DNA from: a virus
Length of the DNA stretch: 64,000 nt
IMG/VR virus record: IMGVR_UViG_3300034072_000369
Coordinates: 6,093 to 70,092 of that record
Strand: one strand, 5' to 3'
Of this stretch, positions 1 through 56,640 are shown in pieces; position 1 is the stretch's first letter, and the number at the start of each line of letters is the position of its first letter. The notes beneath the pieces were generated by a model. It was not told where the DNA came from, did no database searches, and was given only the letters and a program-made list of their open reading frames with translations. The position numbers and the translations under genes were made by a program.

Positions 1-2
1 GG

Positions 3-155
3 ATTATGATGCTAAAGCTAAATGATATGGTTCCTCCAGATTATGATGATGAAGAAGGTAAACAAGAGATAACTGCTGATGAAAGTTTAATTAGTAAACC
101 TGATAATTCAGACTTTGCTAGGAGAATTGCAGATGAAGAAAACACCAAGCTCTAA
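3..155 (+). CDS. 3' end of a gene truncated by the window edge, probably the portal protein
   Basis: Open frame from the edge (IMMLKLNDMVPPDYDDEEGKQEI...) to TAA at 153-155. The portal call rests only on position upstream of MuF-scaffold-capsid and the absence of a portal elsewhere in the window. Confidence 0.4.
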   Translation: MMMLKLNDMVPPDYDDEEGKQEITADESLISKPDNSDFARRIADEENTKL

Positions 156-159
156 CCTA

Positions 160-288
160 ATGAAAGAAGGTCTTTACAAGATGAAGGAATTACAAACTCC
201 TCGTAAAGACATGAATGAAAATAGAGACATATGGAAAAATAAAGATATGTCAAAAAGTGCTGAAATTGCATCTAAAATAAAGAGGTGA
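160..288 (+). CDS. Small hypothetical protein (42 aa)
   Basis: ATG at 160 to TGA at 286-288; fills the gap between flanking genes; below the ORF-track size cutoff. Confidence 0.4.
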
Positions 289-292
289 TACT

Positions 293-445
293 ATGCCACT
301 AAAGAAGGGTTATTCTCAGAAAACAATTTCTCAGAATATTAGTACGATGGTTAAAGAAGGCCGTCCGCAAAATCAAGCTATTGCTATTGCTTTAGAAAAA
401 GCTCGAGAAGCGGAGCAAAAGAAATCTAAATCGAAATCAAAATAG
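293..445 (+). CDS. Small basic phage protein (50 aa, [16 protein letters not shown]...QAIAIAL)
   Basis: ATG 293 after GAGGTG, TAG 443-445; resembles a recurrent small phage head-region protein type (recognised by eye). Confidence 0.65.
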
Positions 446-454
446 GTGAGATTT

Positions 455-3400
455 ATGTCCATCAACGCTAATACACAAATTTATGACAAAGCAATAGATA
501 GAGCTGCAATGATAAGGCTCTACGAGAGACGTGTCAATGGTAAGATTGAATTAGTTATTGATGGTCATACCGTCCGAGTAGATAAACTTATCAAAGATGC
601 AAATCTTTCAACTAAAGGCTTTAATAGATTACAGGAAGCCATTGATCAGGAACTTCAGCGAACATATAAAGAAGCATTCAATATCAGTAAAAGATCTTTA
701 TTAGATCTTGTTTCTGATCAAATCTCATTTACATACCAAAATGTAGAATCTGCATTAGGTAAGATTTGGCGTGCTGAAAGACCTCCTAAAAGAGTAGCTG
801 AAGAAATTGTACTTGAAAAACCATTACATTCTAATCAAACTTTAGCTGCTGGTTGGGCAGGTATAAGTTCTAATGAGAAGAGACGTATTGAAGCCTTAAT
901 TAGAAAAGGAATTGCAGAAAATAAAACTGTAGATGAAATTGCTTTAGATGTAAGACGAGGCAATATTCATAGTATTAGTCGTATGCAATCAAAGGCATTA
1001 GTAGTAACTGCAATAACTTCTGTAACAGCTCAAACGGATCATGCAGTATATAAAGCAAATGAAAAAGCTATCCAAGGTTGGCAATATGTTGCTGTGTTAG
1101 ACTCTAGGACAACTCCACTCTGTGCTCATAGAGATGGTAAAATATATCCAATAGATGACACACGACATTTGCCACCAGCTCATTTTCATTGTAGATCTAC
1201 TACAATTCCTGTATTCAAATCATGGGAAGATATGAGTAAATTAGAAGGTGTTGCACAAATACGGCGTAGGAATATCTCAAATCTTAGTGATAAGGATATT
1301 CAATTCTATGATGGTCAAACGCCTATGCGAGAGACCTATAATTCTTGGTTGTTAAGACAAGATAAAAGTGTACAATTACGTCATATTGGAGATTATCAAA
1401 AAGTTGAGTTATTTAGATCTGGCCAACTAGAATTAAGTAAGTTCACTAATGATGAAGGTAATTCTTTAGGTATAAAAGAACTTAGAGCAATGACAGATAG
1501 TGGATATACGCTACCAAATGACACAAGGAAATTTGCATTAGCTAAAGAAAAACTAGATGCAATGCAATTAGGCGCAAATACTCCTGATGACCTAATTAAT
1601 GACAAACAATTAAGACAAACCTTACTTGACTATTATCTATTACAGGCTGGAGATCTTAGTGGTAATTTGTCTCTAACTAACTATAGAGGCACTCTAATGG
1701 GTGTTAAGCGATCTGTAAAGAATCGCGTTTTATCTACTCCTCCTAGAGAAGATCAGCTAAAGTTTAATCCAATAACAGGTCGATATGAAGATGTTAGACT
1801 GTATCAACCAAATCCATCAGTATTAACCAATAACATAAGACTTATTGATGAGAGTACTAAGCTTTTAGATAGAGATAAAGAATTTATTAAAAACTTTGTA
1901 GATAATCTAGCTGAAAGAATGAGTGTTAATGAAAGAGCAGTAATTGCAGATAATTTAAGAATAATTTTTGGAAGATATCGAGACAATCCAGACGTATGGG
2001 TTAATCTGAAAGCAATTATTCAGAGTCAAATTAAGTTTGATGTAATGAATGTATCAGATGCTATTGAGACTCAGATTCGAAGAGACTCTGACATCTTAAA
2101 GAAAATCTTACAAGATAATTATATTGATCCAGTATTAGGTCCAGTACAATTACAAGATTTACATGATAAGTTTATAGATAATATCTTAAAACGAAATAGA
2201 TGGGAAGATAAAGTTGCACCTAAGATTGCTAATGAACTAAGGAATGTATTTGATTATAAAATACCTCTAGTTATTAAAAATAGAATTTCTGATAGAGATT
2301 TACAACAATTCTATCTAAGATTTGCGCATAGATTAAGTTTAGCGGATTCTCCAGACAGAGATCAATTCGCTATTGCATTAGGAAGAGATCTCTATAACTT
2401 AGCAAATTTAAATGGTTATAAGAGAAAATGGTATGATCTTGGATTATCTTTACTAGAATCTAAGAATGTAAAGAAATTCTTTGAAGTTGAAACATTTGGT
2501 GTTCAAAAGAGGCGAATGAAAAGTAAGTTAAGTTCAGCTTACTTTGGACCTTATTATGATACACTGTCTTATAATATTCGAGTTGTAGACCCAAGAATTC
2601 AAGAATATGCTCAACTTAATAGAAAAATAGATCTAGGACTAAGAATTAGTGTAACTGAAGATAAGAATAGACTTGTTTTCAGAGAAGGTTATAAAACCTA
2701 CTTTATTGATCGTGGAATTTTAGGATATGAAGATACTAGAATACCAATTACATCTACTAGTAGTTTTAGCGATTTTCCAGAAGAATTTGTCGACAAAGAA
2801 TTTATAGATGCTTTAAATTGGGCATCTAAGGCAAAATATAAAATAGATCAGGATTATTTCGACTTTGTACGAAAATTACTATACTTTGAAGACGACAGAG
2901 GTAATGCTAAGAAGTATAATGACTTGAACGAATATCGTAAATATATGGCATCTCGAGGAGATACATATGAGCGATTTAAGGCAATGGAATGGTTAAGAGC
3001 TTCTGGTAAGTCTTTTAGCAATCATCCATTCATTGATCATCGTGCTCGTATTTATGATCGTGGTCTAATTAGTCCTCAATCAGGTGAAGCTTTTAGACCA
3101 TTTTTGAACACAGAAGAAGTTAAGAAATTTAGTCCTGATGACTTTAGAAATTTACAAGATCAAATAGGAGCTTTTCTTGGTGGATTAAATGATTACTTTG
3201 AAGGCAGATTTAATTCTTTATCATTTACTGGCAGACAAAAAGTTGCCGAGAAATGGAGACCAGAATTAATAAGAGTAGGTAATCATATGCTAAGAGGTAA
3301 ACCTAATGATATTAGAGCTATATTAGAATCTGATTTTGTTTCTAGAGTAGATGGTGAAGAATTAAATAAATTCTTTAGATTTGCATTAGAAATTGCTAAA

Positions 3401-5083
3401 ATTGATAATTATCTAGAAGGTAATTATTCTGCTAAATCACTTGAAAAGCTTAATAATTATGATATTTCTCTTGCATTAGAGCAGGATGCTTCCTCATCTG
3501 GTGCTCAAATTATTGCATTAACTACTAGGAATAAACAACTTGCTGAATTAAGCAATGTCGTACCTACTAGTCAAAAGAAAAGATTATACGATGAAATTGC
3601 AGCTTTAACGTATAATGATCCTAGGTTTAGAAAGCTAAATGAAAGATTAGGTCTAAATGAGAAAGATTTAAGAAAAGCTTCTAAAGCTCAGAATATGGTT
3701 ACATTCTATGGTGCTGGAGAACGTACTAGTGGTCTGAATGTAGAAGGTAAATTATCTAAAGTTCTAGAAAAAGATGTAAACACATTAGTTGTAAAGGCAG
3801 CTGATAGAGATAAAGTCTTGAATGAAATAAGTGCTAGAATTGCACGATATGAGAAATTTGATCCTGAAACTGCTGAAGAACTAAGAGATTTACGTCAAAA
3901 TGTTAGAGATATATTTAACAAAGGATTAGACCCTGGTGATGAAATACTAGAGCAGCTGTATTTTCTTGATCCTAAAACTAGAGATCTTGTTGAAAAGTTG
4001 TCAACATCTTATGAAAAGATTGTGACACCAAATGACTTTAAAGCAATCGCTCAAATTATGAGTGAGTATCTTGCAGAACAAGTACCTATTCTAAAAGGAT
4101 TTACTAGATACTTTGGTAGATTAGCGGAAGACTATCTAGCTAATGCTAAACCATCTAATGCTGACTTCGATTGGAAAACAATTGCAAAAACTACATTAGT
4201 TGGAAGTAAAAAGAAAGGTTATGTACTCTCAGATAATGTAAGCCAGCTATTAGGTGTTAAAGCAGGTGAACCTCTGAGTGAGAAACTTTTAAAGAGATTT
4301 GGTTTCTGGAAACCTAATGGGACTCTAAGTCAAATTGTTTATGGGGTAGAAGCTCCAGATGTCAGGCGAACTGGTGCTAAATATCTTAAAGTAGACTTTT
4401 TACAGTTAAAGACACTAAATGAATTAGAAGTCTTTTATGCAAACAAATTACCAAAAAGCTGGACTAACGTACCTTGGGTAAATTTTGATGGAAAGATTAT
4501 TGAACAGAACTTTACGCAAACTATTGAAGAAAGATTGGTATATAAGGATAAATTTGGTAATTGGACTACAAATATTTTACAAGTGCCTCAAAAGACTGAA
4601 GCATCTTGGTGGGAACAGGTAATAAATAAATCAGGTAAAATTAATGATATTGCAGATCTTACAAGAGCTAGAACTGCCTTTGCAGTTAATGGTAATCATT
4701 CAAATGATGCTGTAATTGTAAAGAAGTTCCATTTATGGGGACGAAAGAATAAAGTTCCAACGTCTACTATACATGATGCTTTCTTTACTAATGCTGCTGA
4801 CATGTTAAAAGCTAGGCAGGCTCTAAGAGAGAGTTATGCTGAAGTTTTAAATAAGAATGTAATCAAAATGACACTAGATGAGATGCGTGCGAGAGGTCTA
4901 CCTAAAGAATTATATGATAAATATCTTGAAGAAGCTATTGAAACAGGCCTAATACCAATTCCTGGTAGGTCAAGAGTGGGTGGTAAAATACTCACAGAAA
5001 AAGATATTCTGAACAAGTCTGACATTCTTAGAGAAATCCCTAAAGGTTTTTCAAATGATTTCGGATGGTACGGAGTAGGTTAG
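455..5083 (+). CDS. Fusion of a MuF/SPP1-gp7-like minor head protein and a T7-type single-subunit RNA polymerase (putative virion RNAP)
   Basis: N-terminal MuF signature WQYVAVLDSRTTPLC...PPAHFHCRS (~1076-1200). C-terminal RNAP motifs: DHRARIY (~3035), motif A QDASSSGAQ (~3485), motif B RKASKAQNMVTFYG (~3671), motif C TIHDAF (~4769). One uninterrupted ORF; ATG 455 preferred over GTG 446 because of the AGGTG ribosome-binding site. Confidence 0.9.
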   Translation: MSINANTQIYDKAIDRAAMIRLYERRVNGKIELVIDGHTVRVDKLIKDANLSTKGFNRLQEAIDQELQRTYKEAFNISKRSLLDLVSDQISFTYQNVESALGKIWRAERPPKRVAEEIVLEKPLHSNQTLAAGWAGISSNEKRRIEALIRKGIAENKTVDEIALDVRRGNIHSISRMQSKALVVTAITSVTAQTDHAVYKANEKAIQGWQYVAVLDSRTTPLCAHRDGKIYPIDDTRHLPPAHFHCRSTTIPVFKSWEDMSKLEGVAQIRRRNISNLSDKDIQFYDGQTPMRETYNSWLLRQDKSVQLRHIGDYQKVELFRSGQLELSKFTNDEGNSLGIKELRAMTDSGYTLPNDTRKFALAKEKLDAMQLGANTPDDLINDKQLRQTLLDYYLLQAGDLSGNLSLTNYRGTLMGVKRSVKNRVLSTPPREDQLKFNPITGRYEDVRLYQPNPSVLTNNIRLIDESTKLLDRDKEFIKNFVDNLAERMSVNERAVIADNLRIIFGRYRDNPDVWVNLKAIIQSQIKFDVMNVSDAIETQIRRDSDILKKILQDNYIDPVLGPVQLQDLHDKFIDNILKRNRWEDKVAPKIANELRNVFDYKIPLVIKNRISDRDLQQFYLRFAHRLSLADSPDRDQFAIALGRDLYNLANLNGYKRKWYDLGLSLLESKNVKKFFEVETFGVQKRRMKSKLSSAYFGPYYDTLSYNIRVVDPRIQEYAQLNRKIDLGLRISVTEDKNRLVFREGYKTYFIDRGILGYEDTRIPITSTSSFSDFPEEFVDKEFIDALNWASKAKYKIDQDYFDFVRKLLYFEDDRGNAKKYNDLNEYRKYMASRGDTYERFKAMEWLRASGKSFSNHPFIDHRARIYDRGLISPQSGEAFRPFLNTEEVKKFSPDDFRNLQDQIGAFLGGLNDYFEGRFNSLSFTGRQKVAEKWRPELIRVGNHMLRGKPNDIRAILESDFVSRVDGEELNKFFRFALEIAKIDNYLEGNYSAKSLEKLNNYDISLALEQDASSSGAQIIALTTRNKQLAELSNVVPTSQKKRLYDEIAALTYNDPRFRKLNERLGLNEKDLRKASKAQNMVTFYGAGERTSGLNVEGKLSKVLEKDVNTLVVKAADRDKVLNEISARIARYEKFDPETAEELRDLRQNVRDIFNKGLDPGDEILEQLYFLDPKTRDLVEKLSTSYEKIVTPNDFKAIAQIMSEYLAEQVPILKGFTRYFGRLAEDYLANAKPSNADFDWKTIAKTTLVGSKKKGYVLSDNVSQLLGVKAGEPLSEKLLKRFGFWKPNGTLSQIVYGVEAPDVRRTGAKYLKVDFLQLKTLNELEVFYANKLPKSWTNVPWVNFDGKIIEQNFTQTIEERLVYKDKFGNWTTNILQVPQKTEASWWEQVINKSGKINDIADLTRARTAFAVNGNHSNDAVIVKKFHLWGRKNKVPTSTIHDAFFTNAADMLKARQALRESYAEVLNKNVIKMTLDEMRARGLPKELYDKYLEEAIETGLIPIPGRSRVGGKILTEKDILNKSDILREIPKGFSNDFGWYGVG

Positions 5084-5086
5084 TGA

Positions 5087-5104
5087 AACCCGTTAAATTA
5101 ACCC
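5087..5104 (+). promoter_or_regulatory. Class 1 conserved motif AACCCGTTAAATTAACCC (putative phage RNAP promoter), upstream of scaffold and capsid genes
   Basis: One of five near-identical 18-mers, all intergenic and in the same orientation. Confidence 0.75.
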
Positions 5105-5193
5105 AGGTGTCATTTAGTATAATGATACCTACTATTTTATAATAAAGATTGTATCTTTATTTTAATGAGTTGTACTCAAAAGGAAATTTTAAA

Positions 5194-5883
5194 ATGTCTG
5201 ATTCTAACACCAATAACGCTGATACTGATAATACTAATCAAGATTCTGATAAGAATCAAAATAATAGTAATCAAAATAATCAGCAGACTAATGAAGACCC
5301 TGTTGAAAAGTTAGTAAAAGAACGTGTCTCTGAAGCTGTTAAGGATATCAAAACTAAACTTGATAGTGCTTACGGTGCTCGTGATGAAGCGATGCGAAAG
5401 CTTGCAGATATCGAGCAAAAACAGAAAGAACGTGAACTTGAACAACTTAAGAAAGAGGGTAAAGAGAAGGAAGCTTTAGAACTTCAACTATCTGAAGAAC
5501 GTGCCAAAAGAGAGACTCTAGAACGGCGTACTATTGAACTTACGCGAGATCTAGAGTTACGTAATTCGCTCTCTGGCTATGATTTTAGGAATGATACTGC
5601 AATAGATATGGCGTATCGTGAAATTGTAGCACAACTTATTCAAAATGAACAAGGTGTTTGGGTACACAAATCAGGAATCTCTGTAAAAGACTTTGTCAAA
5701 CAATTTACAGAACAAGATTCTAATTCATTTTTGTTGAAACCAAAAGTATCTTCTGGTGCTGGAACTACGACAACTCAATCTAATAGTTCATCTGGTGATA
5801 ATAGCAAGAAATCGCTCTTTAGCATGTCGCAAGATGATGTCTTAAAATTAGCTAGGGAAGGCAAACTTCCTCCTAAGAGATAA
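5194..5883 (+). CDS. Capsid scaffolding protein
   Basis: N/D/Q-rich N-terminus, charged coiled coil, directly upstream of the major capsid gene; AAGGA RBS before ATG 5194. Confidence 0.75.
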   Translation: MSDSNTNNADTDNTNQDSDKNQNNSNQNNQQTNEDPVEKLVKERVSEAVKDIKTKLDSAYGARDEAMRKLADIEQKQKERELEQLKKEGKEKEALELQLSEERAKRETLERRTIELTRDLELRNSLSGYDFRNDTAIDMAYREIVAQLIQNEQGVWVHKSGISVKDFVKQFTEQDSNSFLLKPKVSSGAGTTTTQSNSSSGDNSKKSLFSMSQDDVLKLAREGKLPPKR

Positions 5884-5894
5884 AAGGAATTTAA

Positions 5895-7082
5895 ATGACT
5901 GTTAAAACTAACCTTGCAGGTGCCGACAACTTTGTTCTGCAAGAAGCTCTGAGTGCGTACTCGGATGAAGCATATACTAGTGAACGTAAACTTACTAGCA
6001 CTGGTATTGTTGGCGATAATCCTAATATTGATACTAACACTGAAACCTTTAGTGGTCAGGTTCGTTGGTTTAAGCCTTTGAATCCTACTGTTAACGTTGC
6101 ATCTCTTACCGACTCTACTGCCGGTACTGGTACTACGTATTCGTCTGATTATGTAAATTACATTAAGACAGTACGTACACATGGTGCTACTAAAGTTAAC
6201 ATGCAGCAAGTTGTAACTCAACAAGACGGTCTTGCTAAAATCGGTCGTGATTTTGGTGAAACTCGTGCTAAAGATGAGCATAATGCTCTCTTGGCTATTC
6301 TTAAGGGTGTTGCACTGTCCGAAGCACTCAATGGTGCTGCTGCTGCTAGTGGTGCAACAGGTCTTGGTGGACAAACTTTTGATAATGATCCTACCGATAA
6401 GAAATACGGTTTCTATGTAGACCTTGGTGCAGCTAAGGCTGTTGTAGATGCAACTACTTCTATTCAGGGTGCTGCTCGTGCTCAAGGTTTCTTAGATGCT
6501 ATGGGAATGGCATTTAAAGATTATGAGCCAGAGTATGCATATCTAATCACCAGTCCTCAAATGATGGCTTCGCTTCGTTCGGCAAATCTTGTTGATCAAA
6601 CGACTGTTGTAGATGGTAATGTTAATTTTAATACTATCTTCCAAGGTAAACTTCGTTTGATTCAAACTCGTGCCTCACAAGGCTTTACCTCTGCTGAGTT
6701 GACAAAAGTTAACACTGGTGCAGGTGTAGATATTGTTGGTACTAAAACCTCCTTTATCGTACTTCCTGGTGCATTAGCAATGCGTCCTCTAGCTGTGCCT
6801 GATCAAGTTGAAATTGAGCGTAATGCTGCAGCCTATAAGGGCGGTGGTACTACCTCTATTTGGTATCGTTGGGGCTATGTAATGCATCCTGCTGGTTACG
6901 ATTGGGCAGGTGGTAAAGAAGCATTCCCATCTGATGCTGAGTATCGTTATGCAATCGAAGGTGGTACACCTAAAGCCCTCGCTAGCGTTGCCTCTGGTAC
7001 GCTTGCAAGCACTACAGGAACATGGATTCGTAAGTCGTCTTCTGCATTGAGCTTGGGTATTCTGCCTATTTTCCATTCTTAA
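5895..7082 (+). CDS. Major capsid protein
   Basis: 395 aa, A/G/T-rich, strong RBS, follows the scaffold gene; C-terminal RWGYVMHPAGYDW motif typical of phage coat proteins. Confidence 0.85.
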   Translation: MTVKTNLAGADNFVLQEALSAYSDEAYTSERKLTSTGIVGDNPNIDTNTETFSGQVRWFKPLNPTVNVASLTDSTAGTGTTYSSDYVNYIKTVRTHGATKVNMQQVVTQQDGLAKIGRDFGETRAKDEHNALLAILKGVALSEALNGAAAASGATGLGGQTFDNDPTDKKYGFYVDLGAAKAVVDATTSIQGAARAQGFLDAMGMAFKDYEPEYAYLITSPQMMASLRSANLVDQTTVVDGNVNFNTIFQGKLRLIQTRASQGFTSAELTKVNTGAGVDIVGTKTSFIVLPGALAMRPLAVPDQVEIERNAAAYKGGGTTSIWYRWGYVMHPAGYDWAGGKEAFPSDAEYRYAIEGGTPKALASVASGTLASTTGTWIRKSSSALSLGILPIFHS

Positions 7083-16637: not shown

Positions 16638-17203
16638 TTGAGTTTAGTTCAACAATTATTTCGCTTCTACAAAATCCATCTGTAGATGCATTTTATATGG
16701 TGAGAATTTATGCGTACTATACTACTTCTCACTTTAATAATATTACTTTATCAAATGGCGAAACTTATGTAGCTGACGGTCGGATTGTTCAAGTTGATCC
16801 TCCAAAATTATCTGCTACAGTAGATCGTGAATTATATAAGGTAACTTTAGCAGATCCAGACTATACACTAGGTGCTGCAGCACAGTCTGGATTAGTAGGA
16901 AAAGAATTTGAAGTTCGTATCGGATTTATAAATCCAAGTACAAACGCACCTTATACACAACTTGCCAATACTATCTTAGCCTACAAGGGTTTAGTAGATA
17001 GTATTGCCTATAATATCGGTACAGGAAATGTGAATGAAGCGATTCTTAGTGTAACAGGTTCTAGCCCTATGTCTGATTTAGATTTAACAAGGTCTTTTTA
17101 TACAAGTAAGGAATATATCAGAACATTAAACACTAATGATACTTGTTTTGATCAGATCTATGAAGGATCTGGACCTGTACAACTTAAATGGGGTAGAGGA
17201 TAA
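16634..17203 (+). CDS. Putative tail tip/hub protein
   Basis: 189 aa ending ...DTCFDQI...LKWG, a pattern typical of siphovirus tail-tip proteins; gene order. Confidence 0.55.
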   Translation: MIEFSSTIISLLQNPSVDAFYMVRIYAYYTTSHFNNITLSNGETYVADGRIVQVDPPKLSATVDRELYKVTLADPDYTLGAAAQSGLVGKEFEVRIGFINPSTNAPYTQLANTILAYKGLVDSIAYNIGTGNVNEAILSVTGSSPMSDLDLTRSFYTSKEYIRTLNTNDTCFDQIYEGSGPVQLKWGRG

Positions 17204-20200
17204 TGGCAGTCGTTATTGGAACATTAACAGTTACTTGGGCAATGGTACAAACAGCTATTGTCATTGCGTCTATTAGTTATAACCTATATCAAGCAAAGAA
17301 AGCACGAAGAGCTGCTAGAGAAGCTGCAGAAGCTAGAAAAGGCTTTGAACTCGTCACTGAAGGTGAAGTGATCTCTCTACCAATTGTATATGGTAGAGGT
17401 ATGGTAGGTGGTGTTAGAGTATACCACAATGTAAGTAGTACTTTTAAATTTCCAAGTATAACTGTACCCGCTGATAAAACTTTTTCAACAGGTGCAAATG
17501 CAAGAGATGGAGATGTATATACTTACACCGATGAACAAGGCACTGTTACAACTTCTGCATATAACGGAATTAGTGAAAAGAAGCTAAATCAAAATATTGA
17601 TGGAAACAAGAATGAATTTTTATTCTTTCAGCAGGCATTTTGTCAAGGCCCTATCAATGCAGTATATGATGTAATTATTGAAGAGTCACAATTTATTGAT
17701 GACCCAGCACTAGGTGATTCTGCCACTAAGACTATCTACAAAGGTGGTTCATTTGTCGAAGATAGTGATCCTAAAGCTGCATTAAGATTTAGCTTCTTCT
17801 ATAATGGTGGCAATGATCAGATTATTGCGAATAATTTTCCTGAAAGACAGACTGCATTATTTACAAATATTGCGTATCTATCTGCAGTTATAAGGCTAGA
17901 TCGAGATGAGCCTCAATTTGATAGAATACCTAACATTCAAGCATTGATTGAAGGTCGTAAGGTTAAAGTAATTAACAGAACAGGTACTTCTGGAAATTAT
18001 ACATATAGTCTAGCTTCATCATTAACTTATTCTAATAATCCAGCGTATTGTTTACTAGATTATCTTCTAGATTCTACATCAGGAAAAGCTCTACTACTTT
18101 CTCAAATAGATCTAAAGAGTTTCTACGATGCAGCTCAAGTTTGTGATATAACAATTCAAAACAATGTAAATATTGGTGGTAAAATTTGGCAACCAACAGA
18201 TGGTTCTAGAAATGTATCAACTAGAAATTTACCTCTATATGAATGTAATATCGTAATAGATACTTCTAAACCAGTTAGAGAAAATGTAGAGGCAATATTA
18301 GCTACAATGGGTGATGCACGTTTGATTTGGTCACAAGGTAGTTATAAGCTTTCGTTACAATATCCTTTAACTAATTCTGCAATTAATCTAGCAACTACTC
18401 TAACAGATGATGATTTAGTTCATGATAAAGCTGTAGAAGTAGGTTGGCCTAGCTCTAGTCAACGACTCAATAGCTGCACAATTCGTTTTCATAATGAAGC
18501 TAATAACTTTAAAGAAGACTCTGTGTCATGGCCGCCTAAGACTAATCAACAATACACTAGAGGTATTGGTGCTAAACGCTACAATCCAGTTTCAGGCTGG
18601 GAAGCTAATAGTGATGGCCATAAGTTATTAAATAATTATGCTGTATGGGATGGCGGAACTACAAGTACCTCTATGATTTGGCGTATTATTCCTAAAATAT
18701 CTGGAATATATACTTTACAACTAGCTGCAGACAATAGTGCTACTCTGACATTGGCTGGAAGTTCGACTGGCGCAAGTGATCATAATGCTGTAGTTAATAG
18801 TACTAGAGCTTTAAATGCTAATCAAGAATATATACTTACAATTACTGGATCAGATGACAATAATGGTGGTAGAGGCGTTGCAGCTATTTTAACTGCGCCT
18901 GACGGTACTACTTTATGGACTACTCGAAGTGAGTCTTACTCATCATTTGTAAATGTTACTCAAACAAACACTATTTACAATGCAATGCTAGCAGAAGATA
19001 ATAGCATTACATTAGAAACAGATTTGTTTGCAGAAGGTATTACAGATTACTATCATGCCTTAGCTAAAGCTGAGGAAATGGTTAGAGTTAGTCGTAGTGC
19101 AATTGTCGTAAGATTCCAATATATACTGAAGGATAAATACTTAGAGCCTGGTGATATTATTAAATTAAATAGCACCACTTTAAATCTTGGCAATACTGCA
19201 GATTTGTTCTTAAGAGTTGATGAAGTAAGATTAATGGAAGGTTCTATTTGCGAGATAAGTGCTACACGATTTGATTATACACAATTAGCATGGTCTGTAA
19301 AACCTGCAGAATCTGTTGTATCTCCTAATCTTTATAACTTCTATCTGACTGCTCCCTCTTATGTAACATTTACGTCTGGCAACAATATTATTAATAACTC
19401 GCCAGGAACTCTTACATGGGGTCTTTCACCTGAGACATCTATTAGCGGATATATAATTTATTTTCATGAGTTTCAGAATTTGGATTCGGGCGGTAGACCT
19501 ATATTTGTTGAAATAGGCAGAGCTACAGCACCACCATTCTATGTACCAGACCTAGGATCTGTTATTGGTGTATTTGGTGTAAGAGCATTTACAAATACAA
19601 TAACATCTGAAATTGCAGTAACTAGTACAACACAAGTTACCAAGATTGATGCATTACTGAATCCACCAACAGCTACAAACTTAAGTGCGGCCTTGTTTGG
19701 TGATTTCGATCAAGCGATTAAATTAAATTGGACTATTCCTAGTATTAGATCTAATGGTATAAACTATGAAGATCATGAACTAACTAGAATTTATCGTGCA
19801 AAAGATGTTCAAAATCCCAGCTTTATTGAAATAGGGACTAGTGCTAATAATGAGTTTATTGACAATACAAATGAATTTGGTGACTTATTATACAAAGTTA
19901 GATTAGAAAGTACTAGAAAACTCTTAGGATCATTTTCTAATACAGCAGCTGTAAATCTTCCGGCAGATAACGCATTAGCGTCTGATCGAGCTACAATATT
20001 TGCGTATAAGAGAAGCTTAGATCCTCTGTCATCAAATGATAATCCTGGAAGTGCAACGTATTCTTTTGCAACCAATCAGATAACTAGTACTTTAGCGAAC
20101 AACTGGAGTAAGGTAATTCCATCTGGAGATGATACACTCTATGTCGTTGTCGCGATTGTATCTTCCCCCTCGTCTACAATTACCTTTCCAGCATCAGCTT

Positions 20201-23200
20201 GGTCTTCTCCTTCCATATTTGTAAAAACTGGTCAAGATGCAGTTAATATAGATTTGCTGTCTGAAGCAGATGTGACTAGAGCTGAACAGGACGGCACTAA
20301 TTACTCATTACCACCAAATAATGCTATTCGTTTATATAAAGGTGGAGAATTACTTACTTCGAATGTTGTCTATTCAGGTACAATTACTAAAAATGGTCTT
20401 ACGGCAACTGTTAACTCTAGCACAGGTCAAGTAACCTTTACAGGCGGTTCATGGACAACTAATACAGAATCTTTCATATTTCAGGCTGTTTATGGTGGAA
20501 ATACATATTCTGTATTGTATACATACGCTAAAAGTAAAGATGGCGATGATGCTATCATCCCTGACTTAAAGTCTGAATCTGAGATTGCCTTTGCAAATGT
20601 AAACGGAATTGTATCAACATTGCCAGTAGGAAATGAGTTTAGACTATACAAAGGTGGTACAATTCTTAATTCTGGGCTTAATTTCTTTATTGGAAGTTCA
20701 GGTACTCAATCTCAAACTAAAAATGGCCTTACATTAACAATAAATGCAACTACTGGTGCATTTAGCCTAACACAGAGTAGTTGGTCTTCGGATTTTGAAC
20801 AATTCACACTAAGTTGTATTTATGACTCTATAACATATAGTAAGATTTATAGCTTAACAAAGCAAAGAGTAGGTGCAACTGGAGCTGCAGCTGCCTTATT
20901 TACAATTGATAATGCTGCTGCTATCTTCAAAAAAGATAAAAATGATTTAATTACACCTGAAACAATAACTCTAGTAACTACTGCAATAAATGTATCTGCC
21001 ATTGATGGCTATAAATGGTATAAAAATGATACTGAAATATCTGGTGCAACAAGTTCTACATATTCAGTACCTAAAGCCGACTTTAATGCAACCACATCGA
21101 ATACTTATAAATGTATATTAACAGGTACAATAAATGGTATTACAAATAGCACACTTCAAGACTTTATTGTAATACCTCGACTTGATGATGGTGCTGAAAC
21201 GCCTACGGTAGTTATTTCTAATAATGCTGTTCAATTTCAAGGTCCAACTACAGGTTATGATGGGATTACATTTACTAGTGCTCATCAAGTAGTCGTTAAT
21301 GCTTATATAGGTACTACTCAATTATCTTATGGTACTTCTGGCGCATATACTTTTAGCGTAACTAAAGCAAATACTGGAATCACTGTAGCTACAGGAACAG
21401 GCTCTGGTGTGGATTACGTAATACCGCAACCTAGTGGCGTTTCCTCAGATACCGCTTATGTAGATCTTACCATTATAATAAGAGGATTAGGAGGAACGGT
21501 AGCTGCTACCTTAACAAGACGTATTTTATATGTAATTAGTCGAGCAGGCTATGATACAATATTTTTAGACTTAACCAACGATATTCACACTATACCTGCA
21601 GACGAACTAGGTGTTGCCCTTAGCTACAATGGTGCAACAACTACTATGAGTGTAATTAGGGCAGGTCTAGATGAGAGTAATCTATGGACAATAGATAGCT
21701 CAGCAAGCACTGGGATTACTTACGATAAATCTAATAGCAATAGAACTGCGACTGTTACAGCTGTTACAAATGGCTTTGAGAATGGAGTTATTACATTTAC
21801 AGCAACAAGAACAGGCTTTACAACTCGAAGCGTAGACTTTACCGTTACTAAGCTTAAAGGTGGCAAGGATACTATTGTAATTGATCTGTCGAATGATTCT
21901 CACATATTTCCGTCATCAAGTGCAGGAGTAGTCTCGACTTATCTAGGTGGATCTACAAATCTTACATTATACAAAGGTGGTATTAATGACACTGCTAATT
22001 GGACTATTGTCACAGCTGTAAGTAATCCTAATATTCTGATTAATGGCGCTAATAGTGCATCTGTCGAAATAATATCTTTTCCTGATAATCTAGATTCAGG
22101 TTATATAGACTTTACAGCAAGTAGATCAGGATTCTCTACACAATCTGCAAGATTTTCCTTTATTAAAGGCAAGCAAGGTTTTAAAGGAGAACCTGCAGTT
22201 ACTTTAGCATTAAGTAATGAAGTTCATAGTATTCCTGCTAATGCAGGTGGAATTCCACTTTCATATAGCGGAGCCTCTTCAACTGCAACTATACTGTTTG
22301 CTGGAGTTGATGATTCTTCTAATTGGACTTTTGATTCTACGGCTTCTGCAGGAATTACTTATTCTAAATCTAATAGTAATAGAACAGCTACTATATTAGT
22401 AATTGAAAATACATTTACTGCCGGTTATATAGATTTTACAGCAACTCGTGCGGGATATACTACTCAAACTTCTAGATTTATTGTTAATAAACTTAATGCA
22501 GGTAAAGATACCGTCATTGTAAATTTAACTAACGATTCACATCCACTTCCTGCTGATCTAAGTGGAGTAGTAACTAGTTACACAGGAGCATCCTCTACAG
22601 TATCAATCTTTGTAGGAGATGTAGATGATACTGCTAATTGGACTATATCTATTACAAGCAGCACAGGTGTTACTGCTAGTTTATCTGGTGCTACTGCTAC
22701 TGTCTCTGCAATTGCAGATAATGTCGATTCTGGATATGTTGATTTTACTGTAAGTAAGATTAATTATCCAACAAGAGTATTAAGATTTAGTCTTGCAAAG
22801 GCAAGACAAGGAGCAGTCGGCACTGCAGCTATATTTTTAGATCTTAGCAATGACAGTCATGAGATTCCTGCAAATGCAAATGGAGACGCACTATCTTACG
22901 TAGGAGCGGCTAGCACTGCAACAATTTTGAGTGGTGGTGTTGATGACTCTGCTAATTGGTCATTTGATGCAGTAGCTTCAGCTGGTATTACCATAGAAAA
23001 GTCTAATAACAATCGAACTGCAACTGTTACTGCGGTTACTAATGCATTTCTTTCTGGTACTGTAACATTTACTGCAACTAGAAGTGGATATTCTAACAGG
23101 ATCAGTATATTTAGTTTATCTAAACTATTGCAAGGAGAAACTGGTGATTCTGCTGTCTCAATACAGCTATCTAATGACAATCATCCTTTACCGGCATTAA

Positions 23201-24561
23201 ATACGGGTATTGTCTCTAGCTATGTAGGTGCATCTTGTACGGCAACAATCGATATTTCAGGAATAGATGATTCTGCTACATGGACTTTCACAAATGGAGC
23301 TAGTGATCCTAATATTACATACACATCTAGTAATGCTAATAGGACTGTAACAGTAACAGCATTTCCTAGTAATATAGATGCTGGTTATATTGACTTTACT
23401 GCATCGAAAACTGGATATACATCTAAAATTGCAAGATTTAGTTTAGTAAAAGTTAAAGATGGTGCAAATGGTACTAACGGGACAAATGGTACTAATGGAG
23501 TTCCTGGCTATAATAACGCAATTGTGTATGCCTATAAAAGAAGTAGTAGTGCTCCTACCGATAACCCAGGCGCAATTACATATACTTTTGCATCCGCTTC
23601 AATTACAGTTCCAGATACTCTAGCAAATAGTTGGAGTAAAACAGTACCAACAGGAACAGATCCACTATATGTAGTAGTTGCAAGTGCATCCGATACTGGC
23701 GCTACAGATAATATTGCTGCTAATGAATGGAGTTCTCCTGTATTACTTGTACAGAATGGTTCTAACGGCACTAATGGCTCTAATGGTACTAATGGTACTA
23801 ACGGCACTAATGGCTCTAATGGTACTAATGGTACTAACGGCATAGATGGCTATAATGTCGCTACAGTATTTTTATATCAAAGAAATAATGACTCTGGGAG
23901 TGCTCCTTCAGTTAGAACAGGTGATACTACAACATACACATTTAGTAATGGTAGCGTTTCAAATCAACCTACAAACTGGTCTGGTACAATCCCAGCAGCA
24001 TCTAATGGAACAGTAATTTGGGTAATTCAGGCTACAGCAAGTGCTAGAGCAACAACAGATTCAATTGCAGATAATGAATGGAGTTCACCTCGTGTATTAA
24101 CTCTTAAGGGTGATAACGGTACTAATGGTACTAATGGAACCAATGGTTCGCCAGGTGCAACTGCTGTAACTGCGTATAAGCTTGTTTATAGTGCAACAGG
24201 ACTGCCATCATCACCTGCAGTAGGTTCCGGTGCACCAACTAGTGGCACAGCAACGCAAGATACTAGCAATAGTGATGTAAATTGGTATACTCAACCACCT
24301 ACGAGTATAGCAGCTAATTATTGGCTATTCCAAAAATCAGGTACTTTATTAGTATCTACGTATACTTGGATATCGCCATCATTTTTAGCAACATTTAAAG
24401 TAGGTCAACTTTCTGCACTATCAGCAGATATTGGGACAATTACAGCTGGACAACTTACTTCTGGAACTGCAAGTGATGGTGTAATTGTTACACCAAAGGG
24501 GATGAAAGTTGTTGTAGGCGGTGTTGTAAGAGTTCGAATTGGCGATTTAAGCGCATGGTGA
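17203..24561 (+). CDS. Central tail tip / host-specificity protein (gpJ-like) with tandem beta-rich repeats
   Basis: LPIVYGRG and YSNNPAYCLLDYL motifs of tail-tip proteins; 2452 aa; six ~105-aa repeats; GTN tripeptide runs; ends VRVRIGDL. Confidence 0.85.
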   Translation: MAVVIGTLTVTWAMVQTAIVIASISYNLYQAKKARRAAREAAEARKGFELVTEGEVISLPIVYGRGMVGGVRVYHNVSSTFKFPSITVPADKTFSTGANARDGDVYTYTDEQGTVTTSAYNGISEKKLNQNIDGNKNEFLFFQQAFCQGPINAVYDVIIEESQFIDDPALGDSATKTIYKGGSFVEDSDPKAALRFSFFYNGGNDQIIANNFPERQTALFTNIAYLSAVIRLDRDEPQFDRIPNIQALIEGRKVKVINRTGTSGNYTYSLASSLTYSNNPAYCLLDYLLDSTSGKALLLSQIDLKSFYDAAQVCDITIQNNVNIGGKIWQPTDGSRNVSTRNLPLYECNIVIDTSKPVRENVEAILATMGDARLIWSQGSYKLSLQYPLTNSAINLATTLTDDDLVHDKAVEVGWPSSSQRLNSCTIRFHNEANNFKEDSVSWPPKTNQQYTRGIGAKRYNPVSGWEANSDGHKLLNNYAVWDGGTTSTSMIWRIIPKISGIYTLQLAADNSATLTLAGSSTGASDHNAVVNSTRALNANQEYILTITGSDDNNGGRGVAAILTAPDGTTLWTTRSESYSSFVNVTQTNTIYNAMLAEDNSITLETDLFAEGITDYYHALAKAEEMVRVSRSAIVVRFQYILKDKYLEPGDIIKLNSTTLNLGNTADLFLRVDEVRLMEGSICEISATRFDYTQLAWSVKPAESVVSPNLYNFYLTAPSYVTFTSGNNIINNSPGTLTWGLSPETSISGYIIYFHEFQNLDSGGRPIFVEIGRATAPPFYVPDLGSVIGVFGVRAFTNTITSEIAVTSTTQVTKIDALLNPPTATNLSAALFGDFDQAIKLNWTIPSIRSNGINYEDHELTRIYRAKDVQNPSFIEIGTSANNEFIDNTNEFGDLLYKVRLESTRKLLGSFSNTAAVNLPADNALASDRATIFAYKRSLDPLSSNDNPGSATYSFATNQITSTLANNWSKVIPSGDDTLYVVVAIVSSPSSTITFPASAWSSPSIFVKTGQDAVNIDLLSEADVTRAEQDGTNYSLPPNNAIRLYKGGELLTSNVVYSGTITKNGLTATVNSSTGQVTFTGGSWTTNTESFIFQAVYGGNTYSVLYTYAKSKDGDDAIIPDLKSESEIAFANVNGIVSTLPVGNEFRLYKGGTILNSGLNFFIGSSGTQSQTKNGLTLTINATTGAFSLTQSSWSSDFEQFTLSCIYDSITYSKIYSLTKQRVGATGAAAALFTIDNAAAIFKKDKNDLITPETITLVTTAINVSAIDGYKWYKNDTEISGATSSTYSVPKADFNATTSNTYKCILTGTINGITNSTLQDFIVIPRLDDGAETPTVVISNNAVQFQGPTTGYDGITFTSAHQVVVNAYIGTTQLSYGTSGAYTFSVTKANTGITVATGTGSGVDYVIPQPSGVSSDTAYVDLTIIIRGLGGTVAATLTRRILYVISRAGYDTIFLDLTNDIHTIPADELGVALSYNGATTTMSVIRAGLDESNLWTIDSSASTGITYDKSNSNRTATVTAVTNGFENGVITFTATRTGFTTRSVDFTVTKLKGGKDTIVIDLSNDSHIFPSSSAGVVSTYLGGSTNLTLYKGGINDTANWTIVTAVSNPNILINGANSASVEIISFPDNLDSGYIDFTASRSGFSTQSARFSFIKGKQGFKGEPAVTLALSNEVHSIPANAGGIPLSYSGASSTATILFAGVDDSSNWTFDSTASAGITYSKSNSNRTATILVIENTFTAGYIDFTATRAGYTTQTSRFIVNKLNAGKDTVIVNLTNDSHPLPADLSGVVTSYTGASSTVSIFVGDVDDTANWTISITSSTGVTASLSGATATVSAIADNVDSGYVDFTVSKINYPTRVLRFSLAKARQGAVGTAAIFLDLSNDSHEIPANANGDALSYVGAASTATILSGGVDDSANWSFDAVASAGITIEKSNNNRTATVTAVTNAFLSGTVTFTATRSGYSNRISIFSLSKLLQGETGDSAVSIQLSNDNHPLPALNTGIVSSYVGASCTATIDISGIDDSATWTFTNGASDPNITYTSSNANRTVTVTAFPSNIDAGYIDFTASKTGYTSKIARFSLVKVKDGANGTNGTNGTNGVPGYNNAIVYAYKRSSSAPTDNPGAITYTFASASITVPDTLANSWSKTVPTGTDPLYVVVASASDTGATDNIAANEWSSPVLLVQNGSNGTNGSNGTNGTNGTNGSNGTNGTNGIDGYNVATVFLYQRNNDSGSAPSVRTGDTTTYTFSNGSVSNQPTNWSGTIPAASNGTVIWVIQATASARATTDSIADNEWSSPRVLTLKGDNGTNGTNGTNGSPGATAVTAYKLVYSATGLPSSPAVGSGAPTSGTATQDTSNSDVNWYTQPPTSIAANYWLFQKSGTLLVSTYTWISPSFLATFKVGQLSALSADIGTITAGQLTSGTASDGVIVTPKGMKVVVGGVVRVRIGDLSAW
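21550..23460 (+). repeat. Six tandem ~315-325 bp coding repeats in the tail tip gene
   Basis: Each unit starts LxLxN(D/E)xHxxPx and contains SYxGxxxT and DxxxxWT/S; starts near 21550, 21865, 22190, 22505, 22825, 23150. Confidence 0.85.
23755..23850 (+). repeat. 9-bp tandem repeat encoding Gly-Thr/Ser-Asn (collagen-like); shorter runs at ~23461-23499 and ~24110-24150
   Basis: GGTACTAAT/GGCACTAAT/GGCTCTAAT units visible directly. Confidence 0.9.
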
Positions 24562-26824: not shown

Positions 26825-27276
26825 TAATATCTGAAGTAAAGACAATGAATGAAATAAAATACTGTGTAGATATGTATTATGCACAAAATGATTTTTCATT
26901 CCTAAATGTAGATAAACAACTAGCTGTTAAAAATCTAGAAACATGCGTAAGACGTAAAAAGTTTGTAAGAGTAGTTTATAAGGATAATATTATTGTGTCT
27001 TGGATTTATGCTAATCAACTTACAAGCCAACATATGAGTGAAAGTATTTTATTACAAAATTATTATTGCAGTGTTTTAAAAGGTCCAAGTGCAGTAAGAT
27101 CAATTAAATTACTACACAATGAAATGATCTCTTATGCTAAAGAAAATAAATATCAAATTTGCATGTCGAATGGCAGTCATCTAGATGAGAATAATACTTT
27201 TGCTAAAATATTAGAGAGACTTGGTTGGATTAGACGAGGTTATGTTGCAATATACAAAATTGATTCTAATCCTTAA
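26821..27276 (+). CDS. GNAT-like protein
   Basis: 151 aa with a C-terminal KILERLGW pattern; weak fold-level resemblance only. Confidence 0.4.
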   Translation: MIISEVKTMNEIKYCVDMYYAQNDFSFLNVDKQLAVKNLETCVRRKKFVRVVYKDNIIVSWIYANQLTSQHMSESILLQNYYCSVLKGPSAVRSIKLLHNEMISYAKENKYQICMSNGSHLDENNTFAKILERLGWIRRGYVAIYKIDSNP

Positions 27277-27320
27277 AGAATTAGTGAATCGGAATAGGTA
27301 GTGGGTGCGTGAGTAAAATT

Positions 27321-27432
27321 GCCCCAAGAAGCTACCAGATTGCCCCATAGGGACGTCGGAGAGACTCGCTGGTACCTCACTATCAGTCGGTGTCACCAGC
27401 GTCTCTATGGGCCGTTTTTCTTCATTTATTTT
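27321..27432 (+). other. GC-rich intergenic element A (inverted relative of 48013-48123)
   Basis: Local GC island; internal stem CCCATAGGGACG (27344-27355) / CGTCTCTATGGG (27400-27411); both ends match the reverse complement of element B. Confidence 0.55.
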
Positions 27433-27476
27433 TAAAACAAATTTCATAAACACATATGCTCAGAATTATTAATACG

Positions 27477-27494
27477 AACCCGTTAGATTAACCC
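27477..27494 (+). promoter_or_regulatory. Class 1 motif AACCCGTTAGATTAACCC upstream of the lysis genes
   Basis: 17/18 match to the consensus, intergenic. Confidence 0.75.
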
Positions 27495-27565
27495 TGAGAC
27501 GTACCCCTATATTATCATTTAATTGTTAATAGTAGTTTTGTATATCTCATTAATTAAGGAATAAT

Positions 27566-28093
27566 ATGCTACCTGCAATATTACAGCCTCTAATTGCCGG
27601 AGGCTTTAATTTAATCAGTAATGCAGTATTAGCTAAAGGTAAAGAGTGGGTTGAAGAGAAAACTGGTGTAAAGCTAGATAATGCTCAACTATCTCAAGCT
27701 GATATGCTTAAATTGCAACAATTTGAGTTAGAGCATGAAGAAGAACTTTTACGTTTAAAAGTAGAAGATAATAAAGTTAGTGCCGAACTTGAGAAGGCAT
27801 ACTTAAAGGATCGACAAGATGCTCGAGATCTTCAGAAGAATGCTTTATATTCTGAAGATAAATTTGTCAGACGATTCATATACTACTATGCAATCTTCTG
27901 GTCAATAAGCGCTGCTGCATATATCGCATTTATCACTTTCGGTTCAATACCTGCTGATAATATTAGATTTGCAGATACTATTTTAGGGTTCTTATTAGGA
28001 ACAATTGTATCTACTATAATTGGCTTCTTCTATGGGTCTTCTAAAGGCAGTCATGATAAAACTGAGGCTCTTACAAAGGAGTTAATCAAATGA
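27566..28093 (+). CDS. Putative holin
   Basis: Two C-terminal hydrophobic segments ending GFFYGSSKGS; overlaps the endolysin start. Confidence 0.7.
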   Translation: MLPAILQPLIAGGFNLISNAVLAKGKEWVEEKTGVKLDNAQLSQADMLKLQQFELEHEEELLRLKVEDNKVSAELEKAYLKDRQDARDLQKNALYSEDKFVRRFIYYYAIFWSISAAAYIAFITFGSIPADNIRFADTILGFLLGTIVSTIIGFFYGSSKGSHDKTEALTKELIK

Positions 28094-28416: not shown

Positions 28417-28419
28417 AAT

Positions 28420-28448: not shown

Positions 28449-28476
28449 GCGGAAAATATGGTATCTTATATGATAA
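28449..28476 (+). promoter_or_regulatory. Class 2 motif GCG-N9-GTATCTTATATGATA (putative early promoter)
   Basis: GCGGAAAATATGGTATCTTATATGATAA; 27/28 identical to 29449-29476; also readable as sigma70-like TTGCGG-16-TATGAT. Confidence 0.7.
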
Positions 28477-29238: not shown

Positions 29239-29459
29239 TGAAAACTTTAGCTATATTATGTCTTTTGTTAACAGGTTGTGCCTCAGCAATACCACACGAT
29301 TCTTATATACAAAGTAGTTCTATAATATATAAGACTAATCAGTATGGTGAAACTCAACCCCATAACGGTATTTACAGAATTATTGGTAATCAAATTTATC
29401 AAGCAGATTCTGTAGGAAATATTATGTATCACAAGAATAGTCTAAAACGCGGAAAATAG
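29238..29459 (+). CDS. Small lipoprotein
   Basis: MKTLAILCLLLTGCAS lipobox; AAGGAG RBS. Confidence 0.65.
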   Translation: MKTLAILCLLLTGCASAIPHDSYIQSSSIIYKTNQYGETQPHNGIYRIIGNQIYQADSVGNIMYHKNSLKRGK

Positions 29460-29476
29460 GGTATCTTATATGATAA
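29449..29476 (+). promoter_or_regulatory. Class 2 motif, second copy
   Basis: GCGGAAAATAGGGTATCTTATATGATAA, 20 bp upstream of ORF 29497. Confidence 0.7.
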
Positions 29477-34038: not shown

Positions 34039-34056
34039 AACCCGTTAAATTAACCC
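34039..34056 (+). promoter_or_regulatory. Class 1 motif upstream of the SSB/replication operon
   Basis: Exact AACCCGTTAAATTAACCC. Confidence 0.75.
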
Positions 34057-48167: not shown

Positions 48168-48185
48168 AACCCGTTAAGTTAACCC
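48168..48185 (+). promoter_or_regulatory. Class 1 motif AACCCGTTAAGTTAACCC
   Basis: 17/18 match to the consensus, intergenic. Confidence 0.75.
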
Positions 48186-48227: not shown

Positions 48228-48254
48228 GCGTTAAAAGTAGTATCTTATATGATA
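48228..48254 (+). promoter_or_regulatory. Class 2 motif, third copy
   Basis: GCG-TTAAAAGTA-GTATCTTATATGATA; same spacing as the other two copies; also TTGCGT-16-TATGAT. Confidence 0.7.
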
Positions 48255-48288
48255 GCGACATGCTATCTAATCTTAAGGAAATTTAAAA

Positions 48289-56622: not shown

Positions 56623-56640
56623 AACCCGTTAAATTAACCC
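56623..56640 (+). promoter_or_regulatory. Class 1 motif upstream of the cyclase/terminase operon
   Basis: Exact AACCCGTTAAATTAACCC. Confidence 0.75.

Follow-up and report, generated by a model that had tools for sequence, protein, structure and literature searches.

Why should a phage head protein carry an RNA polymerase (RNAP) at its C-terminus? The question is raised by one gene in IMG/VR record IMGVR_UViG_3300034072_000369, a single-contig phage genome of 70,092 bp, of which we analysed a stretch of 64 kb (hereafter the window), where nearly all open reading frames (ORFs) lie on the + strand. The gene occupies a + strand ORF at 446..5083, and its likely start is the ATG at 455, with a ribosome binding site (GGTGAG) 5' of it. 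The encoded protein, here named MuF-RNAP, comprises 1542 amino acids (aa), which equals the length of a database copy (P0002), and its sequence places it in the MuF family as well as in that of the T7-type RNAPs. A preliminary description of the window had suggested that MuF serves here as a packaging and ejection tag with the polymerase as its cargo, and the computational tests reported below agree with and support this idea.

Domains, conservation and distribution of MuF-RNAP

Both halves of the protein were recognised by curated profiles. In Pfam, Phage_Mu_F (PF04233) matched aa 145-251 with 50.6 bits against a cut-off of 29.6, and RNA_pol (PF00940) matched with 48.5 bits against a cut-off of 22, the best stretch being aa 1389-1480. 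In PHROGs, aa 1-346 were assigned to the head morphogenesis family phrog_241 (E 2.5e-62) and aa 859-1094 to the RNA polymerase family phrog_414 (E 2.2e-21). The columns of the family alignment revealed an invariant signature, LD..T..C...PP.H..CRS, within the MuF domain. The preliminary description, which had read the ORF as about 1540 aa with a MuF N-terminus and a T7-type RNAP C-terminus and had proposed a profile search as a check, was borne out by Pfam, with both domains above the curated cut-offs, by PHROGs and by the two profile comparisons that follow.

Through single-sequence phmmer comparison of the whole protein with PDB, no polymerase was found, and the sole match, at chance level, was an archaeal regulator. 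A profile of 30 sequences matched 18 PDB sequences at E<=0.01, and 18/18 were single-subunit RNAPs (T7 RNAP at 1.9e-23, mitochondrial RNAPs at about 1e-17, and two weak 6dt7 chains). With hhalign, aa 857-1526 were aligned with residues 417-877 of T7 RNAP (from NC_001604) at a probability of 98.9%, reaching the C-terminal foot, and large insertions relative to T7 RNAP were located around aa 1105-1210 and 1233-1335. Homology to a second, free-standing RNAP of the same phage could be traced from aa 783.

All the catalytic motifs named in the preliminary description (DxRxRxY, A, B and C, with both Asp intact) are present in the translation, and the RNAP half also contains the motif NGNHSNDA. Conservation was counted across 148 fetched homologs, each at least 1300 aa long, after alignment with MAFFT. 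The motif A Asp (D1011) and the second Arg of DxRxR (R865) were each conserved in 148/148 homologs, the motif B Lys (K1077) in 147/148 and Tyr (Y1085) in 146/148, and the motif C Asp (D1441) in 142/148, the remaining six being gaps. From the alignment, we take D1011, K1077, Y1085 and D1441 to correspond to D537, K631, Y639 and D812 of T7 RNAP. The catalytic residues are under strong constraint.

The domain boundaries in Table 1 were drawn from sequence alone. The middle region (aa ~351-782) is conserved in the family, but gave no Pfam match at E<=1 and no recognised RPOL_N domain. An Atlas search with aa 350-860 gave its best score, 0.84, to RPOL_N, which is a lead only. The middle region may be a divergent RNAP N-terminal domain.

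The same architecture is widespread. A word-index search returned 382 proteins at E<=1e-3 among 8000 scored; both PF04233 and PF00940 were found in 116/120 listed homologs, many of them on contigs of 60-90 kb, and at least 129 loci were confirmed in IMG/VR. When aa 343-1542 were compared by phmmer with 1.84 billion representatives, only 166 hits were obtained. Hits of at least 1300 aa matched at about residues 340-1550 of the subject, and therefore a long N-terminal extension is present there too. Phage_Mu_F was located at the N-terminus in 6/6 of the most distant full-length relatives tested (20-34% identity), and also in the homologs P0155, P0010, P0071 and P0093. In a phage collection, four records covered at least 80% of the protein: EBPR siphovirus 1 (59% identity), two records of DSS3_VP1, and DSS3_PM1 (30-31%). 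The 1463-aa "head morphogenesis" protein of DSS3_VP1 contains both domains above cut-off. Database names for the homologs were only "SPP1 gp7 family putative phage head morphogenesis protein" or "hypothetical protein". The database search for this architecture that the preliminary description had called for therefore found the fusion in hundreds of metagenomic relatives as well as in EBPR siphovirus 1 and DSS3_VP1/PM1. Judged from these homologs, the fusion is ancient and conserved.

Independent assemblies contain the gene as well. A contig of 28,982 nt from a public run, which may be the source sample, covered positions 1-6000 of the window with 0 differences. Contigs of a second study, from a strain 90-99% similar, tile the whole gene and span the MuF/polymerase boundary with no indel in the ORF, and third codon positions accounted for 26 of the 36 listed in-gene differences (manual count). 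The relatives and the second-study contigs refute the concern, raised in the preliminary description, that the junction is an assembly chimera.

The annotation of EBPR siphovirus 1 divides the region among three genes: gp47 ("head protein"), gp48 ("HNH endonuclease") and gp49 ("hypothetical"). The product of gp47 aligns with aa 19-1082 and that of gp49 with aa 1112-1542; the frame stops after ...KAQNMV and restarts in frame at TFYGAGERT, inside motif B. The intervening DNA scored 40.5 bits (E 1.4e-8) against a group I intron model, under the Rfam gathering score of 50, and gp48 contains HNH and NUMOD1 domains. The gene is split inside motif B by a group-I-intron-like element with an HNH gene, a position typical for homing, which targets functionally critical sequence. 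Two further relatives, records G001 and G002, showed split matches to one or both RNAP genes. The three-gene annotation and such split matches could be taken to mean that the long ORF is an artefact of assembly or annotation joining two adjacent genes, but this is scarcely credible beside an uninterrupted ORF on hundreds of independent contigs, the zero-difference contig (possibly of the source sample), the contigs of another study that bridge the boundary, and the in-frame exons around the EBPR insertion.

The polymerase has two hot spots, one near aa 990, shortly ahead of motif A, and one at about aa 1105, where variable insertions of 57-211 aa were found in the homologs P0010, P0036, P0006, P0093, P0108 and P0071. 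Their sequences differ among the homologs. Inteins were considered and rejected for these insertions, which gave no Pfam intein match and had no Cys/Ser...HN boundaries.

A second polymerase and two classes of candidate promoters

The genome of the window encodes a second, free-standing T7-like RNAP (Table 1). The free and the fused enzyme share 26-32% identity, only around motifs A and C, so the free RNAP is not a recent duplicate of the fused one. DSS3_VP1 carries this pair as well, and in an unchanged order: the portal gene is followed by MuF-RNAP, the head and tail genes, small ORFs, the gene of a 732-aa RNAP and DNA polymerase I. Five further records (two close, three distant) each gave one strong and one weak PF00940 match (5/5), the strong one in an ORF of 720-770 aa or in split pieces, the weak one in an ORF of 1470-1700 aa or in split pieces. 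Both polymerases were present in 7/7 genomes checked.

Two classes of intergenic motifs were found. Motif 1 (AACCCGTTAAATTAACCC) has five copies in the window, all on the + strand and intergenic, against 0.01 expected. Its core GTTAAATTAA lies within about 60 nt 3' of the stop in 13/22 loci of close relatives, and the exact longer pattern in 8 loci. Four related records contained 5, 3, 2 and 0 copies, on one strand per record, and a reversed-pattern control gave 0. Motif 2, GCGGAAAATnnnGTATCTTATATGA(t/a)A, has three copies in the window, and two related genomes contain three each; the coding strand carries every one of them. Motif 2 lies upstream of the small-ORF block with the free RNAP gene, and motif 1 precedes genes for replication and structure. 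With the G of TGA taken as +1, motif 2 is composed of an AT-rich block at about -17, a specificity block and a TATA-like melting region, a layout that resembles that of T7-class promoters.

DSS3_VP1 also has two classes. A 12-copy class (ATAGGgTgCGTTAAAGAGGGGG) is located before structural and replication genes, and a 3-copy class (...GAGAAAACTAAGGCATCTATAATGA) has two copies after the tape-measure gene and ahead of the small-ORF block, the last gene of which encodes the free RNAP. The 3-copy element is identical to motif 2 at 17/25 positions with the same spacing (manual count). A composite pattern, built after both elements had been seen, gave 2 matches in the window against 0.02 expected, and it also matched DSS3_VP1, G001, G002 and two distant loci. 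Motif 1 and motif 2, both strictly conserved, strand-specific and intergenic, look like phage promoters.

A sigma-70 scan of 27000-35000 listed 50 sites, against 35.9 +/- 5.4 in shuffles. It revealed no convincing site before the free RNAP gene, and the motif 2 sites were not listed on the + strand.

As to T7 RNAP and the T7-like free phage RNAPs (PF00940), MuF-RNAP is alike in that the palm/fingers motifs and the C-terminal foot align and in that the candidate promoters are short, conserved and strand-specific. It differs in being very divergent, with large insertions and no recognisable N-terminal domain, and in being fused behind a head protein.

Hairpins with a YGT loop were also considered as genome-wide promoters of the N4 kind and were rejected: the + strand has 7 and the - strand 3 (shuffle mean 2.74), and only the two that precede the scaffold gene are conspicuous. 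Between motif 1 and the start of the scaffold gene, the leader (5105-5178) contains three hairpins (fold z = -2.75), of which the last two (5141-5161 and 5166-5178) have TTGTA-type loops, and similar YGT-loop hairpins are found in the same place in many relatives. These leader hairpins might be an RNA stability element or a translational operator. Two intergenic segments, 27300-27420 and 48030-48140, are GC-rich in a genome of 34% GC and apparently structured, each just 5' of a motif 1 copy; no Rfam gathering score was reached by either.

Proposed role of MuF-RNAP and its alternatives

We consider it probable that MuF-RNAP is a virion-packaged and ejected polymerase on a MuF chassis, which starts a transcription cascade like that of phage N4. 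The conserved fusion, the constrained catalytic residues, the separate RNAP and the two motif classes give the layout that would be expected of such a cascade. We infer packaging and ejection from SPP1 gp7 and from published MuF-effector fusions, since MuF is described in passages of PMC5512222 and PMC9503650 as a head component fused to enzymatic effectors that are thought to be packaged and injected. We likewise infer polymerase activity, the pairing of polymerases with motifs, and independence from the host RNAP.

The proposed cascade would run as follows. MuF-RNAP would be made late, within the long structural operon, and its N-terminal MuF/gp7-type domain would bring it to the procapsid portal, so that a few copies are packaged with the DNA. 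At infection it would exit through the tail along with the DNA. The C-terminal T7-type polymerase would then transcribe the early genes from promoters of its own, for which motif 2 (GCGGAAAATnnnGTATCTTATATGA, three copies per genome) is the candidate. The early block includes the free RNAP gene, and the second enzyme would be made from it. The free RNAP would read motif 1 (candidate CCCGTTAAATTAACCC, five copies) and transcribe the replication and structural genes, including the gene of MuF-RNAP. Through the motif 1 copy right after the MuF-RNAP stop, scaffold and capsid would be expressed more strongly than MuF-RNAP, a low-copy protein.

Transcription of the free RNAP gene cannot begin with the free RNAP itself, and therefore the promoter that precedes this gene has to be read first by an enzyme present at entry. 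The host RNAP and the ejected MuF-RNAP are the two candidates. The length, the strict conservation and the cross-clade retention of motif 2 make a phage enzyme its more likely reader.

Several points weigh against an ejected early polymerase. The RNAP match is weak for a single sequence and a profile was needed; an N-terminal promoter-binding domain is not recognisable by sequence (Pfam, hhalign) beyond the Atlas lead. Motif 2 was assigned to MuF-RNAP by logic, not data, and it holds the hexamer TATGAT in the window and a perfect TATAAT in the DSS3_VP1 element, so that a host sigma-70-type enzyme could read it. A terminator-like hairpin (30702-30725) separates the free RNAP gene from the motif 2 copy nearest to it. 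A protein of 175 kDa must traverse a siphovirus tail, presumably unfolded. We found no virion proteome, transcript map or enzyme assay for any member of the family, and the term "RNA polymerase" does not occur in the main text of the DSS3_VP1 paper.

The same -10-like hexamer speaks for a different use of a packaged and ejected MuF-RNAP, in which its task would be chiefly mechanical, with transcription by a polymerase close to the portal pulling the genome in, or the making of primers, and the host RNAP would read motif 2 for the early genes. A genome is pulled in by transcription in T7, and this was proposed for N4; in T7 it is the host enzyme that reads the early genes, among them the gene of the phage RNAP, which also counts for this alternative. 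The fusion and the catalytic conservation fit it equally well. However, the conservation of motif 2 extends over 25 nt, its spacing is fixed and it has no -35-like element, and it was passed over by the sigma-70 scan. It is also common to phages with MuF-RNAPs only 30% identical, which a phage-encoded reader fits better. We regard this mechanical or priming use as improbable.

As unlikely, in our judgement, is that the protein is not ejected at all but acts in the producing cell, by late or packaging-coupled transcription, or serves as a structural internal head protein, with MuF merely co-regulating or localising it. The place of the gene within the late structural operon would suit this explanation, and databases call the protein a head protein only. 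But the catalytic Asp residues, the motif B Lys and Tyr and the DxRxR Arg are kept in 142-148 of the 148 homologs, which argues against a structural relic, and with a free RNAP in every genome checked and motif 1 before the late genes, a third late function would be less economical than an early one.

To return to the ejected early polymerase, we compared MuF-RNAP with the known systems. In its proposed function it comes nearest to the N4 scheme of a virion RNAP plus RNAPII. The N4 virion RNAP (gp50, Schitoviridae) is delivered with the DNA and transcribes the early genes, and N4 encodes a second T7-like RNAP, according to PMC5512222, PMC13434306 and PMC11445570. It has about 3500 aa, with an N-terminal injection region, a C-terminal encapsidation region and no MuF domain (PMC5512222). 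Both enzymes are single-subunit polymerases of the T7 superfamily encoded among late or virion genes, and both genomes have a second T7-like RNAP, which in N4 serves the next gene class. In contrast to the podovirus enzyme of about 3500 aa, MuF-RNAP is 1542 aa long, begins with the MuF domain and ends with the polymerase. Structures of the N4 virion RNAP are in PDB, and no chain of it was among the 18 PDB sequences matched at E<=0.01, where T7 and mitochondrial RNAPs were. Since size, flanking regions and sequence differ, MuF-RNAP is an independent solution outside the N4 family.

Head proteins of the MuF type normally have their place at the capsid portal, in a few copies per virion. SPP1 gp7, Mu F and the MuF-effector fusions resemble MuF-RNAP in their N-terminal domain, in a gene position that follows the portal, and in the principle that an enzyme is carried as C-terminal cargo. 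The effectors compared were polymorphic toxins, ART, PBECR, 2H, RelA-SpoT and Nudix; in MuF-RNAP the place of such a small toxin or modifying enzyme is taken by a polymerase module of about 1200 aa. MuF polymorphic toxins of temperate phages have a C-terminal toxin and a downstream immunity gene, whereas here the C-terminus is a polymerase and the next gene is the scaffold gene. The genome of the window is of lytic type, with no sign of an immunity gene. The crAss-like phi14:2 gp66 and the multisubunit virion RNAPs of phiKZ, AR9 and PBS2 offer a functional analogy only, a packaged polymerase that starts infection. They are unrelated two-barrel folds with other modes of packaging.

In the literature searched, which did not extend to the supplementary tables of Jamet 2017 and Rihtman 2021, no description of a MuF-RNAP fusion was found, and the word "polymerase" is absent from the main text of Jamet 2017. 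To the preliminary description the analysis has added the second, free-standing RNAP, the two promoter-like motif classes and the intron-like element in motif B of EBPR siphovirus 1. Virion-delivered RNAPs are known from few phage groups (N4-like, crAss-like and phiKZ/AR9-like), and each of them changed views of early infection and of the escape from host control. If the ejected polymerase is true, it would be a further, independently evolved virion-delivered RNAP and, to our knowledge, the first in siphoviruses. It would also be the first MuF cargo tag with a polymerase instead of a toxin or modifying enzyme. The family has many members, which at present bear the mistaken annotation "head morphogenesis protein". 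Because it includes two cultured phages of Ruegeria pomeroyi DSS-3, the idea is directly testable. The DNA of the roseophages DSS3_VP1 and DSS3_PM1 contains deoxyuridine (dU). An ejected polymerase may explain how transcription starts in these dU-DNA roseophages, in parallel to the dU-DNA phage PBS2/AR9. AR9 and PBS2 have dU-DNA. Two candidate promoter motifs and two orthogonal small polymerases might also be of practical use.

A broader view may be put forward tentatively, and we would not yet rate it as probable. A cosmopolitan lineage of siphoviruses of about 60-80 kb, including the dU-DNA Naomviridae, might carry out all of its transcription without host RNAP: a portal-tethered MuF-RNAP, passed through a long non-contractile tail, would fire at 25-nt promoters of its own and make the second RNAP, to which transcription would then pass. 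In that case MuF would act as a general tag for delivery, with room for a polymerase module of about 1200 aa, and virion RNAPs would have arisen independently at least one more time, from the T7-like branch.

Gene neighbourhood and other features of the genome

The preliminary description had placed the gene just upstream of scaffold and capsid. This location is confirmed by phrog_206 and phrog_247 matches downstream and by the portal gene upstream (Table 1), with two small ORFs between portal and MuF-RNAP. Further downstream we found an adaptor, a major tail protein, a 1923-aa ORF of tape-measure size and a distal tail protein. The order portal, MuF-RNAP, scaffold, capsid is identical in DSS3_VP1. 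Judged by its gene content, the region is a siphovirus head module with the MuF-RNAP gene in the slot of SPP1 gp7. A portal homolog with 71% identity (P0335) has the NCBI label "Flavobacterium sp.", a weak lead to the host group.

Table 1. Positions of MuF-RNAP, its parts, neighbouring genes and candidate promoters in the window
Feature	Position	Strand	Basis or remark
MuF-RNAP gene	455..5083	+	1542 aa plus stop
MuF / SPP1 gp7-type head morphogenesis domain, aa 1-~350	455..1504	+	Pfam PF04233, phrog_241, alignment-invariant columns
Middle region, aa ~351-782, conserved in family	1505..2800	+	consensus blocks of family alignments
T7-type RNAP core, aa ~783-1542, thumb/palm/fingers and C-terminal foot	2801..5080	+	hhalign to own free RNAP and T7 RNAP; PDB profile search
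IDHRARIY, aa 860-867, aligned with T7 DWRGRVY	3032..3055	+	translation, alignments
Motif A, LEQDASSSGAQ, catalytic D1011	3476..3508	+	translation, alignments
Motif B, RKASKAQNMVTFYG, K1077, Y1085, G1086; intron-like insertion site in EBPR siphovirus 1	3671..3712	+	
Motif C, TIHDAF, catalytic D1441	4766..4783	+	translation, alignments
Portal gene, 3' end	1..155	+	gene begins upstream of the window (L002 4664); phrog_145 E 3.5e-58; PF13264 in homologs
Scaffold gene	5194..5883	+	phrog_206; likely start ATG 5194, in frame with listed TTG 5149
Major head protein	5895..7082	+	phrog_247
Free-standing T7-like RNAP, 761 aa	30933..33218	+	phrog_414 E 1.1e-111; PF00940 216 bits
Motif 1 copy	5087..5104	+	4 nt past MuF-RNAP stop, before scaffold/capsid
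Motif 1 copy	27477..27494	+	after tail genes
Motif 1 copy	34039..34056	+	before replication module
Motif 1 copy	48168..48185	+	
Motif 1 copy	56623..56640	+	before terminase / tail / portal / MuF-RNAP block
Motif 2 (GCGGAAAATnnnGTATCTTATATGAtA), candidate early promoter	28449..28476	+	just after terminator-like hairpin 28420-28441, ending 8 nt before
Motif 2 copy	29449..29476	+	upstream of four small ORFs and free RNAP gene
Motif 2 copy	48228..48255	+	upstream half deviates

No integrase was found among the ORFs that were annotated, which are a part of all ORFs. No cytidine-deaminase-type Dcd or HD phosphatase, which would point to dU-DNA as in DSS3_VP1, was found in the 10 + 20 ORFs searched, many small ORFs lying outside this search.

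The ribonucleotide reductase gene is in two pieces (41237-42286 and 43090-43989) with an ORF for a LAGLIDADG homing endonuclease (42379-43005) between them; the gene may be split or be interrupted by an intron. A free-standing GIY-YIG SegE-like endonuclease ORF (38942-39427) is located between the 5'-3' exonuclease and the primase/helicase. Judged from these SegE-like and LAGLIDADG ORFs and the split RNAP genes of relatives, homing elements seem to be frequent in this lineage.

The last ORF of the window (62948-64000) runs off the contig end, and the ORF at the contig start (L002 1-1308) matches the same tail-spike profile, phrog_4636. Because the two match successive parts of it (positions 298-387 in the window-end ORF, 528-600 in the contig-start ORF), the contig seems to be a circular assembly cut within a gene. 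Outside the window, L002 1309-1860 is a segment of 552 nt without a called + strand ORF and visibly GC-richer, in which a 105-aa ORF was called on the - strand.

At 48859-48938 there are three tandem copies of CCTGAGTAT(G/T)nCT with a spacing of 32-35 nt, followed by two terminator-like hairpins and a T-run just 5' of the small-ORF cluster 49066-56119. A tRNA-Leu (anticodon UAA) is located at 50559-50642 in the small-ORF region, and at the Rfam gathering threshold a tRNA was the only match in the window. A 2452-aa tail ORF (17203-24561) contains internal repeats of about 320 and 640 nt, and at 23449-24180 runs of 9-nt AATGGTACT units (Asn-Gly-Thr).

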